Positions 10,050 to 44,754 of a DNA stretch of 64,000 nt are shown in pieces. The notes under the pieces are model-generated. The model had not been told where the DNA came from. It saw nothing but the letters and a program-made list of their open reading frames with translations, and made no database searches. Source of the stretch: Gammaproteobacteria bacterium (GTDB taxonomy: Bacteria; Pseudomonadota; Gammaproteobacteria; JABABF01); contig OZ250153.1 in assembly GCA_965237805.1 (NCBI GenBank), positions 1,469,043 through 1,533,042 on the forward strand, given 5' to 3'. Numbering within the stretch: the stretch's first letter is position 1; every line of letters begins with the position of its first letter. Both the position numbers and the translations under genes were made by a program.

Positions 10050-11567
10050 TTATAGGGTAGCGCTGTGCTCTTCCAGCGCCAGCCGGTAGCCGAGTGCCTC
10101 CTGCAGATGGTGTTGCCGCACGGTTGCGACCGCTTCTAGATCGGCGATGCTGCGCGCCACTCGCAGCACGCGGTGGCAGGCGCGCGAGGACAATCGCATA
10201 CGCTCGGCGGCCAGCGCCAAGCAGCGTCGCTCGCCCGCTCCCAGCTGGCAGTACTGTTCCAATGCAGCTGGGCTCAGCTCGGCATTGGTGGCGTTGCGGG
10301 TGTGTTGGCGGCGGCGCGCCTCGGAGACGCGGGCTGCCACCTCGGCGCTGGATTCGATGCCCGCGCCGGATCCGAGCATTTGTTCTGGGTTGATGCGCGG
10401 CAGATCTACCTGCAGGTCGATACGGTCGAGTAAGGGTCCCGATATCCGCTGGCTATAGCGCCGCAGCTGCGCGCTACCGCAGCGGCAGCTGCGCTCGGCA
10501 TCGCCTCGGTAGCCGCAAGGGCAGGGGTTCATCGCCGCCACCAGCTGGAAACGCGCCGGGAAGTTGCAGCGTCGCTTGGCTCGTGCGATGCTGACAGCAC
10601 CCGATTCGAGCGGCTCCCGCAATACTTCGAGTACTCGGCGCGGAAATTCTGGCAGCTCGTCCAAGAACAGCACACCGTGATGCGCCAGCGATACCTCTCC
10701 CGGTTGCGGTGTCGAGCCGCCGCCGATCATCGCCGCCGCCGAGCTGGTGTGGTGTGGGGTGCGAAACGGCGGTTGATGCCAGTGCAGCGGCTCCACCGCT
10801 TCGCCAGCCACCGAGCGCAGTGCCGCCACCTCCAGTGCCTGCTCTCGGCTCAGCTTTGGCAACAGGCTGGGCATGCGTGTGGCCAGCATGGTTTTACCGG
10901 TACCCGGCGGTCCGACTAATAGGAGATTGTGTGCTCCAGCGGCGGCAATTTCTAAGGCCCGCCGTGCCTGTGCTTGACCGCGCACCTCAGACAAGTCTGG
11001 CAGCTGATGTGGTGGTGTGTTGGGCAGTGGCGGCGGCACGGCCCTAGGTAGCATGGCGGAACCGTGGAGTTGGCGACAGACCGTTGTCAGCTGGTCGGCC
11101 ACAAAGACAGCGGTTCGGTCGGCCATCGCCGCCTCGGCGGCATTGCCAACCGGCACGATCAGCTGCCGACCCGCATCCCCGCAGTGCAGGGCGGCTGGCA
11201 ACGTCCCCGGCACGTCTCGCAGAGCACCCGACAAGGCCAGCTCACCGAGTAATTCCCAGCCGTCCAGCGCTGCCACCGGCACTTGCCCCGAGGCGGCGAG
11301 GATGCCGATGGCGATGGCCAGATCGAAGCGCCCGCCTTCCTTGGGCAGGTCGGCCGGAGCCAAGTTGATGGTGATGCGGCGCGCCGGGAAATCGAAGCGC
11401 GTGTTGAGAATGGCACTGCGCACCCGCTCCCGACTCTCCCGCACTACAGTCGCAGGAAGGCCGACGATCGCTAGGCAGGGCAGGCCGTTTGACAGGTGAA
11501 CCTCGACCGTGACGAGTGGTGCACTGACCCCCTGGGCTGCACGCGAATTGACGATGGCTAATGGCAT
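10050..11567 (-). CDS. yifB: Mg-chelatase-like AAA+ ATPase YifB/ComM family
   Basis: N-terminal Lon-like domain (MPLAIVNSRA...), AAA+ Walker A (GPPGTGKTM) and C-terminal ChlI domain. ATG at 11567 is preceded by AAGGAGGG with a 5-nt spacer. Confidence 0.8.
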   Translation of the reverse strand: MPLAIVNSRAAQGVSAPLVTVEVHLSNGLPCLAIVGLPATVVRESRERVRSAILNTRFDFPARRITINLAPADLPKEGGRFDLAIAIGILAASGQVPVAALDGWELLGELALSGALRDVPGTLPAALHCGDAGRQLIVPVGNAAEAAMADRTAVFVADQLTTVCRQLHGSAMLPRAVPPPLPNTPPHQLPDLSEVRGQAQARRALEIAAAGAHNLLLVGPPGTGKTMLATRMPSLLPKLSREQALEVAALRSVAGEAVEPLHWHQPPFRTPHHTSSAAAMIGGGSTPQPGEVSLAHHGVLFLDELPEFPRRVLEVLREPLESGAVSIARAKRRCNFPARFQLVAAMNPCPCGYRGDAERSCRCGSAQLRRYSQRISGPLLDRIDLQVDLPRINPEQMLGSGAGIESSAEVAARVSEARRRQHTRNATNAELSPAALEQYCQLGAGERRCLALAAERMRLSSRACHRVLRVARSIADLEAVATVRQHHLQEALGYRLALEEHSATL

Positions 11568-11915: not shown

Positions 11916-12764
11916 GTGGGACAAACATCTCAAAGGCTTGTGATTAGGGAGAACATCATGCTGAGCGTGACAAAGTTAATGGTTTGGAATGCCGATCGGT
12001 TGAGCGCGGGCTTGGGAGTGATCACCAGTCTCTGTCTTGGCCGTGGCTTAGGGGTGGGGCTGTGCCTGATGGCTGTGGCGATGTTCTCGCCCGCGCGCTC
12101 CGAGGCGCTCGCCTTAGGCGAGGAGGCAGACTTGCTGATCGAGGTGGTTGTGGTGAGCGACTATGTCTTCCGTGGCATCTCGCAGACTGGAGAAGATCCC
12201 GCTGTGCAGTTGAGCTTGGAGTTGGAATTGCAGGAGATCCCGGTATCTTTCGGCATCTGGGGCTCGCAGGTAGACTTTGACGATGTGGGCACTGGCACGC
12301 TTAGTCCGATCGATTACGAGCTCGACTTTTGGGTTCGTGTCAGCGTGCCTGTGTTCGAGGATCTCGATCTCGATTTCAGCATCATCCAGTACTACTATCC
12401 CAGCAGTACGGGGGACGAGGACTACACAGAATGGCTGATCGGCACTGAAGTGGGCAATGTTTATATCGAAGGGGTGTACAGCGAGGATTACGGCGGCCAA
12501 GGGGAGTTTTACCGCCTGAGCGCCGAGTATGTCCATAGCTTTGATGCCATCGATGTCGGTGTGCACTACGGTTGGAATCATTACGCCCGTCCGCAGTCCC
12601 TGCTCAATAACGACAACATCTATATGGATTGGGGTGTTTCCGCTTCGATTGAATGGTCCGGCATCAAGCTCGGTGTCGAGTATACCGATGTCAGCCGTTG
12701 TAGCGCAACTGGTGGCGATGCTTGCGATGCGAGAATGCTCGGCTCGATTTCTTATTCTTTCTGA
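11916..12764 (+). CDS. TorF-family putative outer-membrane porin (TIGR02001-like), signal peptide present
   Basis: Acidic beta-strand-rich protein with a signal peptide and a C-terminal ...SYSF, typical of the TorF beta-barrel family that commonly sits next to P-II genes. The true start is probably an internal Met. Confidence 0.5.
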   Translation: MGQTSQRLVIRENIMLSVTKLMVWNADRLSAGLGVITSLCLGRGLGVGLCLMAVAMFSPARSEALALGEEADLLIEVVVVSDYVFRGISQTGEDPAVQLSLELELQEIPVSFGIWGSQVDFDDVGTGTLSPIDYELDFWVRVSVPVFEDLDLDFSIIQYYYPSSTGDEDYTEWLIGTEVGNVYIEGVYSEDYGGQGEFYRLSAEYVHSFDAIDVGVHYGWNHYARPQSLLNNDNIYMDWGVSASIEWSGIKLGVEYTDVSRCSATGGDACDARMLGSISYSF

Positions 12765-12828
12765 AGTGATCTAATGCTGAGGCTGGACGACGGCTGAGTC
12801 CAAAGACAGATACCCCCAAGACCGACAC

Positions 12829-13179
12829 ATGGTGTTCTCTATGTATTTCATTATCGCGGTGATTAAGCCGTTTAAATTAGACGAAGTGCGTGCCCGCTTA
12901 TTGGAAGCCGGTATCAGTGGTCTGACTGTCAGCCATGTCGACGGCTTTGGCAATCAGCGCGGTTTGACAGCGAGCTACCGGGGACAAGAGTCTGCGGTAA
13001 TCATGCATCCAAAGATCAAACTCGAAGTTGCGGTCAGTGGCGATCAACTCGACAGCACCATTGCAGTGATCCAATCGGCGGCTAAAACCGGTGAGATCGG
13101 AGACGGCAAGATTTTTGTGTTGCCGATGCAACAGATGGTGCGCATTCGCACTGGCGATACCGGCTCAGACGCTTTATAA
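12829..13179 (+). CDS. Nitrogen regulatory protein P-II family (GlnB/GlnK-like), Tyr51->Ser variant
   Basis: IKPFKLDEVR..., T-loop GFGNQRGLTASYRGQES, B-loop TGEIGDGKIFV. The start is probably ATG 12841 (MYFIIAVIKPF). Confidence 0.8.
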   Translation: MVFSMYFIIAVIKPFKLDEVRARLLEAGISGLTVSHVDGFGNQRGLTASYRGQESAVIMHPKIKLEVAVSGDQLDSTIAVIQSAAKTGEIGDGKIFVLPMQQMVRIRTGDTGSDAL

Positions 13180-13309
13180 GCCCTGGCCTCTGCCGCGGCG
13201 ATGCCGCCGCAAAAGTGGCTGCCCAAGGGGATTGATGCGGCTCGCTTTGCGAGTTTGCGTCCCGGCCTGAGGTGGCGCACTTGATGCAGGCTGTTTCGGT
13301 GTTGTAGCA

Positions 13310-27657: not shown

Positions 27658-27730
27658 GGGCGCGTAGCTCAGGGGGAGAGCGCTGCTTTCACACGGCAGA
27701 GGTCGCTGGTTCAATCCCAGCCGCGCCCAC
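27658..27730 (+). tRNA. tRNA-Val (anticodon CAC)
   Basis: Manual cloverleaf: acceptor GGGCGCG/CGCGCCC, D-arm GCTC/GAGC, anticodon arm CTGCT-TTCACAC-GGCAG, T-arm GCTGG-TTCAATC-CCAGC, discriminator A. No encoded CCA. Confidence 0.7.
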
Positions 27731-40935: not shown

Positions 40936-42855
40936 ATGAAAGATTTAGACGCGGGTGCCAATATCAAGGCGCTGATTCAACAGGGTCGGGAGAAGGGTTT
41001 TCTCACCTATGCTGATGTCAATGACCACCTGCCCGGCGAGATCACCGACCCGACCCGCATTGAGGAGATTATCCAGATCCTCTCCGATGTCGGCTTGCAG
41101 GTCTTCGAGGAGGTGCCGGACGAGACCGATTTGCTGCTGAGCAATGCTAGCGCGATTGACAGCGACGATGAGGCGGCGGTCGCCGCGCTGATGGCGGATG
41201 ACGATGTCGGCGGCTCGCGCGATCCGGTGCGCATGTACATGCGCGAAATGGGGTTGGTTGATCTCTTGGATCGTAGCGGTGAGCGTGCCATCGCACGCCG
41301 CATCGAGAGCGGCATGGCCGAGACACTGGCGGCCTTGGCGCTGTTCCCGGGAGTTGTGGAGACGGTCTTGCAACGTGTCGCCGCAGCCAAGGGTGATGGA
41401 CGTCGCCTGACGATGACGGTGGTCGGGCATTTGGATCCCAAGATTCAAGACCAAGCCATCAACTTGGAGCGTAGGGCTGTCGAAAACAGGGAGGCCGAGG
41501 GCGAGGAGCCCAGTCGCGAGGAGATTGCGCGCGCCCACTTGGACGACATCATCGTACGCTGTAAGCGGTTGCACAAGTGCCACAAGCAGACCCGCGCCGT
41601 GCTCTGTGCTCACGGGCGAGACAGCGCTGAGGGGAAGGAGGCCATAGAGCAGCTGAGCGCGAATTTTCGCTATCTGAAGTTGGCACCGCGTCTGTTTGAG
41701 GAGTTGATCGCCGATGTGCGCCAGCGCGCCAAGGTGATCCAAGAACGCGAGCGGCGTATCATCAAGCTATGTGTGTCGCAGGCGGGCATGCCGCGGAAGG
41801 AATTCCAGCGTCGCTTTGCCGGGCGCGAGGCAGATATCCGCTGGACCGGCTATCTGGTGCAGATCAAGGCACCTTGGGTGAAGCGGGTGCGCACCCACCG
41901 CGATGAGATCCGCCAGAATCAGTCTCGCATCGCCGAAGCGGTGGCCGAGATGTGCCTGCCGGTACCGAGTGGAGAGGATGCGGACAAATGGTGGGAGGCG
42001 GTGGCACCTTTCCGTGCCGGGCTGTCGGTGGCAGAGATCAAGAACGTCGGTCGCCGCATCATGCTCGGCGAATCTCGTATGCACAAAGCCAAGAAGGAAA
42101 TGATCAAGGCCAATTTGCGGTTGGTGATCTCGATCGCTAAAAAGTACACCAATCGCGGGCTTCAGTTTTTGGATCTGATTCAAGAGGGCAATATCGGTTT
42201 GATGAAGGCGGTAGATAAATTTGAATACCGTCGCGGTTTCAAGTTTTCCACCTATGCCACTTGGTGGATCCGCCAAGCCATCACCCGTTGTATCGCCGAC
42301 CAAGCGCGCACCATCCGCATCCCGGTACACATGATCGAGACGATTAACAAATTGAATCGGAAGACGCGCCAGATTGAGCAAGAAATCGGTCGCGAGCCGA
42401 CGGCGGCGGAATTGGGTGAGGCCTTGGACATGCCCGAGGACAAGGTGCGCAAAGTGATGCGCATCGCCAAAGACCCGCTCTCCTTGGAGACGCCGATCGG
42501 CGACGATGAAGATTCACATTTGATCGATTTCATCCCCGAGACCTCCGAGATCTCTCCCTTGCAACAGACCAGTGGCGGCGATCTGAGCGATCGGGTCAAG
42601 GAGGCCTTGTCCTGCCTCAGCGCCCGTGAAGTCAAGGTGCTGTGCATGCGTTTTGGCATCGACATGCCAGTGGACTACACACTGGAGGAAGTGGGCAAGC
42701 AGTTTGATGTTACCCGCGAGCGCATCCGCCAGATTGAAGCCAAAGCCCTGCGCAAGCTGCGCCATCCCAGTCGGCAACGCCTGCTGGCGGGCTATCTCGA
42801 TGAAGAGTTCGATGCTCAGCCGTCGGGGCGGGGCGAATCTCGCCGGGGCCCGTAG
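40936..42855 (+). CDS. rpoD: RNA polymerase sigma-70 factor
   Basis: [33 protein letters not shown]... with region 1.1, acidic spacer and regions 2-4 ([22 protein letters not shown]...). The C-terminus extends ~15 codons past the usual ...YLDEE end into the tRNA gene. Confidence 0.9.
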
Positions 42856-42922
42856 CTCAGTTGGTTAGAGCATCCGACTCATAATCGGCAGGTCCCCTGT
42901 TCAAGTCAGGGCGGGCCCACCA
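42846..42922 (+). tRNA. tRNA with CAU anticodon, most like tRNA-Ile2 (lysidine; ileX-like), alternatively elongator tRNA-Met; CCA encoded
   Basis: Manual fold: acceptor GGGCCCG/CGGGCCC, anticodon loop CTCATAA. T-loop TTCAAGTC and anticodon-stem GACTCATAATCG resemble E. coli ileX more than metT. It overlaps the rpoD stop codon by 10 nt. Confidence 0.65.
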
Positions 42923-43010
42923 CTTCAACCCCATCGCAGCATCAGCTTTGTAGCCTGCTCAGAAAAGATTGCCAGAGTGTTGCTCAAGCAGCTCGATCAC
43001 CTAGCCGAAT

Positions 43011-43560
43011 CATGACGATGAAATATTTCCTTGTCGCAGTGATCGCGCTTGTGTCGATATTTGGGTTGGCGCAAGTCGTGTTGTGACAAGAGGCTGTCTG
43101 GCTAGCCAAAACCCATGACCGCAATATTGATGTGTACGGACATCATATTTTCTATCGTGAGACCGGTGACCCCGCCGATCTAACAATTCTTTTTTGCCTG
43201 GTTAGCTTGCTTCATCACATGTGTATCGCGAGCTGAGCCCGCTGCTTTCTGGTCGTTACCATATTGTTGTGCCCGCTAAGCTCGGATCCGGCTATAGCGA
43301 CAAACCGGATCCGGATGAGCAGCCTGATTCATTTGAGCTGCTGGCCTATCCGCAATGGCAAGCCTATTGACGAGAATACAAGCCGCCGACATGATTGGTT
43401 TGTGGGAAACACGATCCGGCGTTTATCTCAGCCGGTGTACAAGCCTATTTGCGCGATGTTCCAAATGCAGAGCTGCAGCTGCTTGATGCCCGGCATTTTG
43501 TGATGGAAGACAAACCGGTAGCAATTGCCAAACACATTATAAAATTCTGGGCAAGAGATT
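43011..43560 (+). pseudogene. Decayed alpha/beta-hydrolase (haloalkane-dehalogenase/epoxide-hydrolase-like) gene in a low-GC (~47%) tRNA-adjacent remnant
   Basis: A signal/TM peptide (MTMKYFLVAVIALVSIFGLAQVVL) is followed by an in-frame TGA. Hydrolase motifs then appear in three different frames: IDVYGHHIFYRETGDP..LTILF; YHIVVPAKLGSGYSDKPDPDE; LVCGKHDPAF...ARHFVMEDKPVAIAKHIIKFW. The nucleophile/cap region (~170 aa) is missing. Confidence 0.5.
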
Positions 43561-43590
43561 CAGGGTGTGGTGCCTCGGTCGGCACTCGGC

Positions 43591-44754
43591 TCAGCGCGCC
43601 GCGCTGGAGGCATCGTTGCGCAGGCTCTGGCGCAAGCTGCGCAGGCGCGCCAAATTGTCGCGCCGCTCTGGTGCTGAAGGTGCGCTGGGTTCCGGCTCGG
43701 ACGGCAGAGTATCGGCATGTGGGGTGGTACAGCGTCGTGCCACTTCGGCGAGCGAGGGCAGATAGCTGCTCTGCAATGCGGCGGCGCGTGCGGCCGCCAG
43801 TAGCGCCTTTGCCGGCACCGCGGCCAGCGCGGTGCGCCACATTTGCTTGACTTCCCGCAGTGCCTCAAGGGTGGGCCATGCTTTGCGAAACTGCTGCGGA
43901 AAGAGTCGGGCGAACAGGTGGAAGACTCGATCCACCGCATCGTCACTATCGCCCTCAGCGGCGGCTTTGGAGTCGGTAGCAGCCAGCTGGCGTTGCCACA
44001 GCCCGATGAGCTGACGGCGCAGTTGGTTGAGGCGTTTCCCGGGGAGCTTGTGCTCCTCAGCGGCGCTCAGTGCGGTACCGTGCTCCAGTGTGAAGTCGGT
44101 CGGTATATCTTTCTGGCGGTGCAGCTCGAGGGCGAGCTCCTGGATTTGCGCCGTTGCGCTCGGTGCCGCTTGCGCCCGTGTATCCCGTGCCTCAGCTGTG
44201 GGTGGCACCAGTGACAGCCGCAGGGGAGCCGCCGGTGCCGGGTCGTGGTCGCCCCACAGCACGCCGAGCTGGCACAGACGTTCGAGTAGTTGGCGCAGCT
44301 GTGGCCGATCCCACCAGCTGAAGCGTGCGCCGAGGGCTTCCCAAGTGCTTTCTACCATGCTCTCAGCGGCGGTCTGCGCCAGCAGATCCAAGCCGCTGAG
44401 CAAGCAGGCCTCGGCGGCACCGAGCATGGAGACCAGCGTGGGGGATACCGCCAAGGGTGGTGCGCCGTCACCGTCGCCGGGCCATGTCGCCAGCCTCAGC
44501 TGCAACCGCTGTGCCTGGCGCTCGACGATGTGCAATAGGCCTTGGTCGCGCAGGGAGTCGAGCTGTTTGAGTGCCCAATCCGGTGTCGGTCCGGGCAGGG
44601 CTACCCGCAGCTGTGTTGTGGGCAGCGTCAATTCCCCGTCGACGTCGGCCCACTGCCACAGGCGCGCCAGCACGAGCGCCTCGTCGACACCGCATCGCGC
44701 CGCCAGCGAAGGCGACAGCGACAGCGGGTGTTCGGCGATCAATGCGTGTGGCAT
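43591..44754 (-). CDS. Hypothetical protein (388 aa), possible tandem winged-helix N-terminus; function unknown
   Basis: Long ORF with host-like GC. The start was chosen at MPHALIAEHPL to avoid overlap with the divergent oxoprolinase gene. No confident family assignment. Confidence 0.4.
   Translation of the reverse strand: MPHALIAEHPLSLSPSLAARCGVDEALVLARLWQWADVDGELTLPTTQLRVALPGPTPDWALKQLDSLRDQGLLHIVERQAQRLQLRLATWPGDGDGAPPLAVSPTLVSMLGAAEACLLSGLDLLAQTAAESMVESTWEALGARFSWWDRPQLRQLLERLCQLGVLWGDHDPAPAAPLRLSLVPPTAEARDTRAQAAPSATAQIQELALELHRQKDIPTDFTLEHGTALSAAEEHKLPGKRLNQLRRQLIGLWQRQLAATDSKAAAEGDSDDAVDRVFHLFARLFPQQFRKAWPTLEALREVKQMWRTALAAVPAKALLAAARAAALQSSYLPSLAEVARRCTTPHADTLPSEPEPSAPSAPERRDNLARLRSLRQSLRNDASSAAR

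Follow-up and report, generated by a model that had tools for sequence, protein, structure and literature searches.

A low-GC hydrolase pseudogene next to an rpoD-linked tRNA(CAU) gene in a gammaproteobacterium: a probable remnant of horizontal transfer

The stretch of DNA analysed here, 64,000 nucleotides (nt) of contig OZ250153.1 from a gammaproteobacterium, is called the window in the following; its overall guanine plus cytosine (GC) content is 62.9%. Two thirds of the way along, it carries the sigma-70 gene rpoD, followed on the same strand by a transfer RNA gene with the anticodon CAU, tRNA(CAU). Between this tRNA gene and a conserved convergent gene, whose product weakly resembles the lambda P helicase loader, lies a short low-GC segment with the debris of a secreted alpha/beta-hydrolase gene. 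This segment is the subject of the present study. In our view it is probably a non-functional remnant of horizontal transfer from a donor of roughly 45-50% GC, which entered at the 3' end of the rpoD-linked tRNA after the split from the closest known relative. For comparison we used three relatives, L001, L002 and L003, all of them metagenomic. The features of the locus are listed below, with the evidence for each.

40936..42855, + strand: rpoD (sigma-70), the native left flank; six Pfam sigma-70 regions, synteny in L001-L003
42846..42922, + strand: tRNA(CAU); ARAGORN and Rfam (68.7 bits)
42921..43582, no strand: foreign low-GC segment of 662 bp; blastn break points against L001-L003, GC minimum
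42923..43011, + strand: non-coding leader from the tRNA to the pseudogene ATG; GC 51%, without counterpart in L001-L003
43012..43086, + strand: signal-peptide remnant MTMKYFLVAVIALVSIFGLAQVVL; translation, alignment with P0004 and P0003
43087..43194, + strand: mature N-terminal fragment; translation, alignment, tblastn
43194..43346, + strand: second fragment, LPG*LASSHVYRELSPLLSGRYHIVVPAKLGSGYSDKPDPDEQPDSFELLA (asterisks denote stop codons throughout); translation, alignment, tblastn
43338..43346, + strand: in-frame deletion junction, CTGCTGGCC = LLA; tblastn with P0018, family alignment
43344..43553, + strand: C-terminal fragment, ending in LLDARHFVMEDKPVAIAKHIIKFWA; translation, 62.9% identity to P0018 residues 252-321
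43554..43582, no strand: right junction zone; GC rises, the hydrolase end is absent, L001 homology starts at 43583
43591..44754, - strand: native right flank, the 387-aa P-like gene; P0014 100% identical, syntenic orthologues in L001-L003

The segment stands out by its base composition. Positions 42923-43560 (638 bp) have a GC content of 49.5% and form the lowest stretch of that length in the 64 kb, the fraction of window positions at or below this value being 6e-5; within them the lowest 200-bp value is 47.5%. Towards rpoD the flank has 59-62%, and the gene downstream has about 67%. An initial annotation of this DNA had placed a fall from about 67% to about 47% directly beside a tRNA(CAU) gene. 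Both the tRNA and the adjoining GC minimum were recovered, and the drop is real, but it is less steep than described, since the background is about 63% and the segment as a whole is no lower than the value given above. A scan of 42600-43900 for promoters and terminators returned one weak promoter-like site and no terminator. No DNA match to the segment was obtained from the plasmid and phage collections, and blastn against the hydrolase homologue loci gave none for the leader upstream of query position 164. Of all patches in the window, the one at 12136-13244 has the second lowest GC content (51-53%); it overlaps a porin-like open reading frame (ORF; 11916-12764) and a P-II (GlnB/GlnK)-like ORF (12829-13179), as judged by eye from the translations.

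Relatives sharing this locus were found through the convergent gene. Among the proteins searched, its product P0014 has only three other homologue clusters, and these lead to L001, L002 and L003. All three have the gene order rpoD, tRNA(CAU), P-like gene, and in L001 and L002, as far as the contigs reach, a hydantoinase gene follows. Protein identity of the neighbouring gene to that of the window is 78% in L001, 62% in L002 and 56% in L003. Seen from the rpoD side, nucleotide homology to each of them stops at the same base, 42920, which is the final base of ...GGGCCCAC at the end of the tRNA acceptor stem. The blastn break points are as follows.

L001: 84-87% nt identity; homology ends at 42920 and restarts at 43583; 30 bp at the site
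L002: 76-81% nt identity over the main blocks; homology ends at 42920 and restarts at 43621; 716 bp of unrelated sequence at the site
L003: 66-75% nt identity; homology ends at 42920 and restarts at 43730; about 145 bp at the site

Relative to these three genomes the segment is an insertion, located at the 3' end of the tRNA and occupying 662 bp where L001 has 30 bp. None of the three syntenic relatives carries the hydrolase at this place, intact or decayed: tblastn with the full-length homologue P0018 found no remnant in L001, L002 or L003. The 716-bp filler of L002 was considered as a possible further copy and rejected, as it gave no tblastn match and has a GC content of 55-65%. This filler (L002 11138-11853) is non-coding and contains two direct repeats of about 85 nt at roughly 11290-11470, perhaps a small repeat element; Rfam found nothing in it besides the tRNA and one overlapping sub-threshold hit. 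Since the site is empty in L001, the nearest relative, as well as in L003, the most distant, a gain of the segment in the lineage of the window is far more parsimonious than repeated loss. The synonymous divergence (dS) between window and L001 in the neighbouring gene is 0.52; the insertion can be no older than this divergence.

The gene within the segment is a pseudogene, derived from a member of a hydrolase family and not itself a member. It has no uninterrupted ORF, being broken by four premature stops (at 43084, 43203, 43368 and 43392), a -1 frameshift and the loss of its 3' end. Translation begins with a Sec-type signal peptide, MTMKYFLVAVIALVSIFGLAQVVL, which is shut by an in-frame TGA at 43084-43086, just as the initial annotation had it; this remnant aligns with the signal peptides and the AQA/QEAVW cleavage region of P0004 and P0003. 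The mature N-terminal fragment then reads QEAVW...FYRETGDPADLTILF (also QEAVW...GDPADLTILF) up to the frameshift, which lies in a run of T at 43190-43195, where seven T are needed to read ...LF-L-P-G and six are present. The HGYP oxyanion motif now reads PG*L, its Tyr being replaced by a TAG at 43203-43205 and its His by Pro. The C-terminal fragment, AYPQWQAY*REYKPPT*LVCGKHDPAF...LLDARHFVMEDKPVAIAKHIIKFWA, contains TGA codons at 43368-43370 and 43392-43394. It has kept the catalytic His, and the conserved GHF has become RHF.

Between the second and the C-terminal fragment a large part of the gene is missing. With P0018 (332 aa) as query, tblastn matches were limited to residues 9-67, 72-117 and 252-321. 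Residues 118-251 (about 134 codons) had no match, and with them the nucleophile motif MQDFGAPVG, which supplies the Asp, and the whole cap are absent, in agreement with the earlier claim that this region had been deleted. The deletion is in-frame and comprises about 400 bp. All three hydrolase-like peptides that had been quoted are present in the translations; they had been assigned to three frames, but the fragments occupy two, the second and third peptides sharing one. In family members the motif LLA is found at both break points of the deletion (F(D/E)LLA; NNLLAYP in P0003 and P0011), from which we infer that the missing part was likely lost by a deletion between short direct, LLA-coding repeats. 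At the other end, family members terminate 5-10 codons past the F(M/L) that aligns with KFW of the window. The window has no stop there, and past KFW its frame (ORF 43395-43850) reads on antisense to the next gene; the right junction therefore took the 3' end of the hydrolase. There is no sign of present function for the remnant.

The joined conceptual translation matches Pfam Abhydrolase_1 (PF00561) with 40.1 bits (cut-off 25.8, E = 4.5e-10) and has homologues of 45-67% identity in the protein search, so the fragments, which also match in tblastn, had been fairly described as haloalkane-dehalogenase/epoxide-hydrolase-like. The intact family consists of secreted alpha/beta-hydrolases and is large, with at least 573 metagenomic stretches confirmed as relatives. 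Among solved structures, those of haloalkane dehalogenases and epoxide hydrolases come nearest to it (best PDB match E = 4e-21). Intact members of the subfamily to which the pseudogene is related (PF00561, with the nucleophile motif QDFGAPVG) fall far under the NCBIfam haloalkane-dehalogenase cut-offs, at 108 bits versus 265, and a substrate-level name such as that of P0018, 'Haloalkane dehalogenase [compost metagenome]', is only a label. With this subfamily the pseudogene shares the signal peptide, an N-terminus of the form ...FYRE.GDP..PTILFLHGYPSSSHMYR..., a C-terminus of the form AYPQWQ...WG..DPAF...LLDAGHF and 52-67% identity. It differs in its deleted nucleophile and cap, its destroyed HG motif, its four stops and its frameshift.

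Among the matches listed, the nearest to the pseudogene at the DNA level is the gene for P0003 (loci L164/L165), with 75% identity over 201 nt (E = 3e-33). This gene resides in a genome of about 45% GC, in a region rich in insertion sequences (IS), among IS66 and DDE transposases. It resembles the pseudogene in its third-position GC content (0.45 compared with 0.46) and in having likewise lost its catalytic core through an internal deletion. The deletion has other end points, however, and P0003 is a single ORF of 208 aa that does not adjoin a tRNA. In both loci (L164 5703-6627, L165 5733-6627) it is preceded by the C-terminal fragment of a paralogue. Another group of short relatives, P0006-P0009, P0011 and P0012, consists of gene calls of about 108 aa in several separate clusters, which cover the C-terminal third of the hydrolase family alone. 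The two that were read, P0006 and P0011, start at MSPDSW, and some such calls are on contigs of up to 120 kb. They may represent genes that were truncated or split, or else an effect that gene calling produces repeatedly.

Composition by codon position separates the pseudogene from the genes around it. In the three native flanking genes that were checked, the GC content at third positions (GC3) is 0.73-0.74, and the difference between first and third positions (GC1-GC3) ranges from 0 to -0.10. Over its 156 alignable codons the pseudogene has GC1/GC2/GC3 values of 0.64/0.39/0.46 and thus a GC1-GC3 of +0.18. Across 80 metagenomic loci, the GC content of hydrolase genes of this family tracks that of the host from 30% to 70%. 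These values argue for a foreign composition of the pseudogene and not for one that arose by decay of a native gene.

The opposite view would hold that the hydrolase is ancestral at the locus, was lost independently in the relatives and owes its low GC to decay biased towards adenine and thymine (AT). Bacterial mutation is generally AT-biased, and pseudogenes in high-GC genomes drift downward in GC, so that decay of this kind would lower the GC content of a pseudogene. Moreover, GC1+GC2 of the pseudogene (0.516) is nearer the family-regression value for a GC3 near 0.67, and L002 also has filler of about 700 bp at this position. If, however, all codon positions relax at one rate to one equilibrium GC, the sign of GC1-GC3 remains constant, and uniform decay should not turn the zero or negative native values into the positive one observed. 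Given in addition that the highest GC1 in the hydrolase family is 0.70, the GC3 of the functional ancestor was at most about 0.5. The pseudogene is also as similar to family members (52-67%) as P0018 is to the intact members nearest the window's copy (57-65%); little neutral decay has therefore taken place, and the GC content was low from the outset. The sign of GC1-GC3 and the retained amino acid identity led us to reject AT-biased decay of a native gene as the cause. An ancestral gene would further need at least two clean deletions to the same tRNA base (L001 and L003) as well as a replacement in L002, in genomes that have no similarity to the hydrolase. We give this explanation a very slim chance.

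A scan of a genome collection with rpoD, in which the matches listed were distant relatives of 45-52% identity and included no close named relative, yielded 80 gammaproteobacterial loci. In 56 of them a tRNA(CAU) gene is near rpoD, nearly always downstream and on the same strand. The enterobacterial rpoD-linked tRNA(CAU) is 100% identical to an E. coli tRNA annotated as tRNA-Ile. The window tRNA has the CAU anticodon and a paired G1-C72, as an elongator-type tRNA does, and is linked to rpoD. From this linkage and the enterobacterial identity it is read as an ileX-type tRNA, most likely the ileX orthologue and a tRNA-Ile2 of the predicted lysidine-modified type. Its acceptor stem, GGGCCCG, holds the pairs C4:G69 and C5:G68, which are TilS determinants in E. 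coli. A sub-threshold Rfam match to 'Plastid-ycf2 5'UTR' at 42846-42920 on the - strand (43.6 bits, gathering threshold 65.7), also seen in L002, is probably an artefact, yet in keeping with a tRNA of the Ile-CAU type: plastid trnI-CAU adjoins ycf2, and the Rfam model probably includes its complement. In seven Pseudomonas loci (L010, L011, L017, L021, L023, L031 and L040) the tRNA(CAU) is located about 3.4-4 kb downstream of rpoD, with extra genes in between.

The rpoD gene of the window encodes a 639-aa protein with all six Pfam sigma-70 regions. Its frame extends 10 nt into the tRNA gene (42846-42855), the TAG stop at 42853-42855 corresponding to tRNA positions 8-10, and the protein has a tail of about 16 aa past the usual ...YLDE end. 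In L002 the stop is just before the tRNA. If rpoD and the tRNA are co-transcribed, cleavage by RNase P would deprive the rpoD mRNA of its stop codon.

The 3' end of the tRNA gene carries a trace of the insertion. It is encoded as ACCA in the window and as ACTT, ACTT and ACTA in L001, L002 and L003, the CA at 42921-42922 being absent from the three relatives. An encoded CCA is otherwise lacking from tRNA genes of this lineage, both from the tRNA-Ile2 genes of the relatives (L001 5214-5288, CTT; L002 11854-11928, CTT; L003 1400-1474, CTA) and from the tRNA-Val gene of the window (27658-27730), which is followed by CGG. The inserted DNA therefore supplies the CA. Since CCA is encoded in almost all other gammaproteobacterial rpoD-linked tRNA(CAU) genes surveyed, this fits an element that would bring its own tRNA 3' end, as found in most of these copies.

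Orthologous tRNA genes elsewhere are targets of integration. Among 40 other gammaproteobacterial loci there are 3 in which a Phage_integrase (tyrosine recombinase) gene is the first large ORF past the orthologous tRNA, namely L075 (Stenotrophomonas sepilia), L041 (a Ventosimonas metagenome-assembled genome) and L010 (Pseudomonas sp.). The ORFs at this position are otherwise very diverse, with 47 Pfam families among 40 ORFs. Published reports from E. coli give ileX as the attachment site for three kinds of element: phage 186 (PMC3448106), the LAA island (PMC7545054) and, in Shiga toxin-producing E. coli (STEC) O145:H28, integrative elements (PMC7067040). Like the elements at ileX/ileY, i.e. phage 186, the LAA pathogenicity island and the STEC integrative elements, the segment lies directly 3' of the orthologous tRNA-Ile2(CAU), has a composition atypical of the host and is absent from relatives. 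Unlike them, it has only 662 bp left, without integrase, attachment (att) repeat, mobility gene or intact cargo, and would thus be a scar of such an element. The break at the tRNA end, the encoded CCA, the truncated right end, the integrases at orthologous tRNAs and the ileX literature make entry by an integrase at the tRNA the most likely route. Because the hydrolase ORF lacks its end at the right junction, the segment would moreover be what is left of something larger, and we infer that an island once stood here.

Several observations weigh against this interpretation. The initial annotation had stated that no integrase and no att repeat remain, and the Pfam search of the neighbouring genes and the repeat scans confirm it: the segment holds the pseudogene alone, its flanks are rpoD, the P-like gene and the hydantoinase gene, and neither an integrase nor an excisionase gene was found. 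No integrase domain was detected by Pfam in the P-like gene and the hydantoinase on the 3' side. Repeats of the attL/attR kind, duplicating the tRNA 3' end (...GGGCCCACCA), are likewise missing; a second copy of that end with up to 3 mismatches is absent from the 64 kb. One candidate for a decayed attR, CAAGAGATTCAGGG at 43553-43566, was compared with CAAGTCAGGG of the tRNA T-arm and rejected, as the best shared 6-mer is TCAGGG and 43-58% of random window tiles score as high. The search for flanking direct or inverted repeats, as of IS or miniature inverted-repeat transposable elements, gave only short matches of the chance type. Near-identical donor DNA was not found, the best among the matches listed having 75% nt and 69% aa identity, and intact homologues adjoin tRNAs in just 2 of 80 metagenomic loci. 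The GC1 of the pseudogene is somewhat high for its GC3 (family regression, z = 2.4). Finally, only three relatives, all metagenomic, were available for comparison, the L001 assembly is noisy, with rpoD broken into three gene calls, and no genome of the same species was found in the searched collections, in which the window proteins are singletons at 90% identity.

Some of these points favour a route of entry that does not involve the tRNA, such as illegitimate recombination, a transposon-borne fragment or recombination in the flanks with a relative carrying the segment, the position at the tRNA then reflecting merely a permissive convergent gap. Integrase and att repeat are both missing, insertions into a convergent intergenic gap do little harm, and the unrelated filler of L002 at the same spot indicates that the gap accepts varied content. 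The closest DNA relative is surrounded by transposases and away from a tRNA, and homologues are seldom beside tRNAs. Against this route, homology to the three relatives breaks at one base, the end of the acceptor stem, and only the window has gained an encoded CCA; the tRNA is a demonstrated integrase target in E. coli and other Gammaproteobacteria, and the segment has no flanking IS ends or inverted repeats. We regard entry without the tRNA as unlikely, though it is the main alternative. Of the original proposal that foreign DNA had integrated at a tRNA and then eroded, the foreign origin, the insertion and the erosion thus stand, on the evidence of the empty sites and GC3; the targeting of the tRNA is the part that is argued from circumstance.

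An artefact of assembly, in which reads of another organism were joined to this genome at the tRNA in a metagenome-derived contig, was also weighed. Chimeric contigs classically switch from one genome to another at conserved tRNA genes, and the window proteins are on a single contig of 1.73 Mb, without a second strain. Yet native sequence returns after 662 bp without a shared repeat, which would take two cross-overs, and the heavy degradation of the inserted gene, with its truncation at the junction, would not be expected of a fragment from a live genome. A chimera is in our judgement very unlikely.

The course of events behind the horizontal-transfer remnant may be pictured as follows. After the split from L001, donor DNA of roughly 45-50% GC would have entered a high-GC gammaproteobacterial lineage at the 3' end of tRNA-Ile2(CAU), the vehicle most likely being an integrase-bearing island or a prophage that targets this tRNA. 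Its cargo would have included the gene of a secreted alpha/beta-hydrolase with an Asp nucleophile, of the haloalkane-dehalogenase/epoxide-hydrolase type. All that lay distal to the hydrolase, the integrase and attR among it, would have been lost in later deletions together with the last hydrolase codons. The stranded gene then decayed, acquiring four stops, losing 1 nt from the T run and undergoing the in-frame deletion of about 400 bp, likely between LLA-coding repeats.

The gene on the other side of the segment (43591-44754, - strand), which converges on the tRNA, is outside the insertion. The resemblance of its product to lambda P is weak, with E values of 1e-6 to 5e-4 for PHROG 109 over the same region in four orthologues. 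In Pfam, PF06992 scores 15.8-22.6 bits on the four orthologues, below the cut-off of 26, and the matches extend over no more than the N-terminal half of the profile. Its ratio of non-synonymous to synonymous divergence (dN/dS) is 0.20-0.36, which indicates purifying selection on the gene. Possibly a phage replication gene was domesticated here, beside the tRNA, long ago. A bolder view would join both neighbours of the tRNA, the remnant being the most recent in a series of insertions at a hot spot 3' of tRNA-Ile2. An earlier insertion would have left the lambda-P-like gene, kept under purifying selection and possibly a domesticated helicase loader, and the scar might be retained as supplier of the tRNA CCA and the 3' trailer, the rpoD stop lying inside the tRNA. 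We concede this combination only a slim chance.

In annotation, pseudogene and horizontal-transfer scar are the appropriate labels for the region, instead of several short ORFs or a 151-aa protein (ORF 43395-43850, which runs antisense into the neighbouring gene). Beyond annotation the finding has little import, since the segment is an ordinary leftover of horizontal transfer and the process is well known. Still, the example is clean and dated, the insertion being younger than a divergence of dS about 0.5, and it illustrates the pace at which a stranded foreign gene is dismantled. It would also place the rpoD-linked, ileX-type tRNA among the insertion points of foreign DNA well beyond the enterobacteria.

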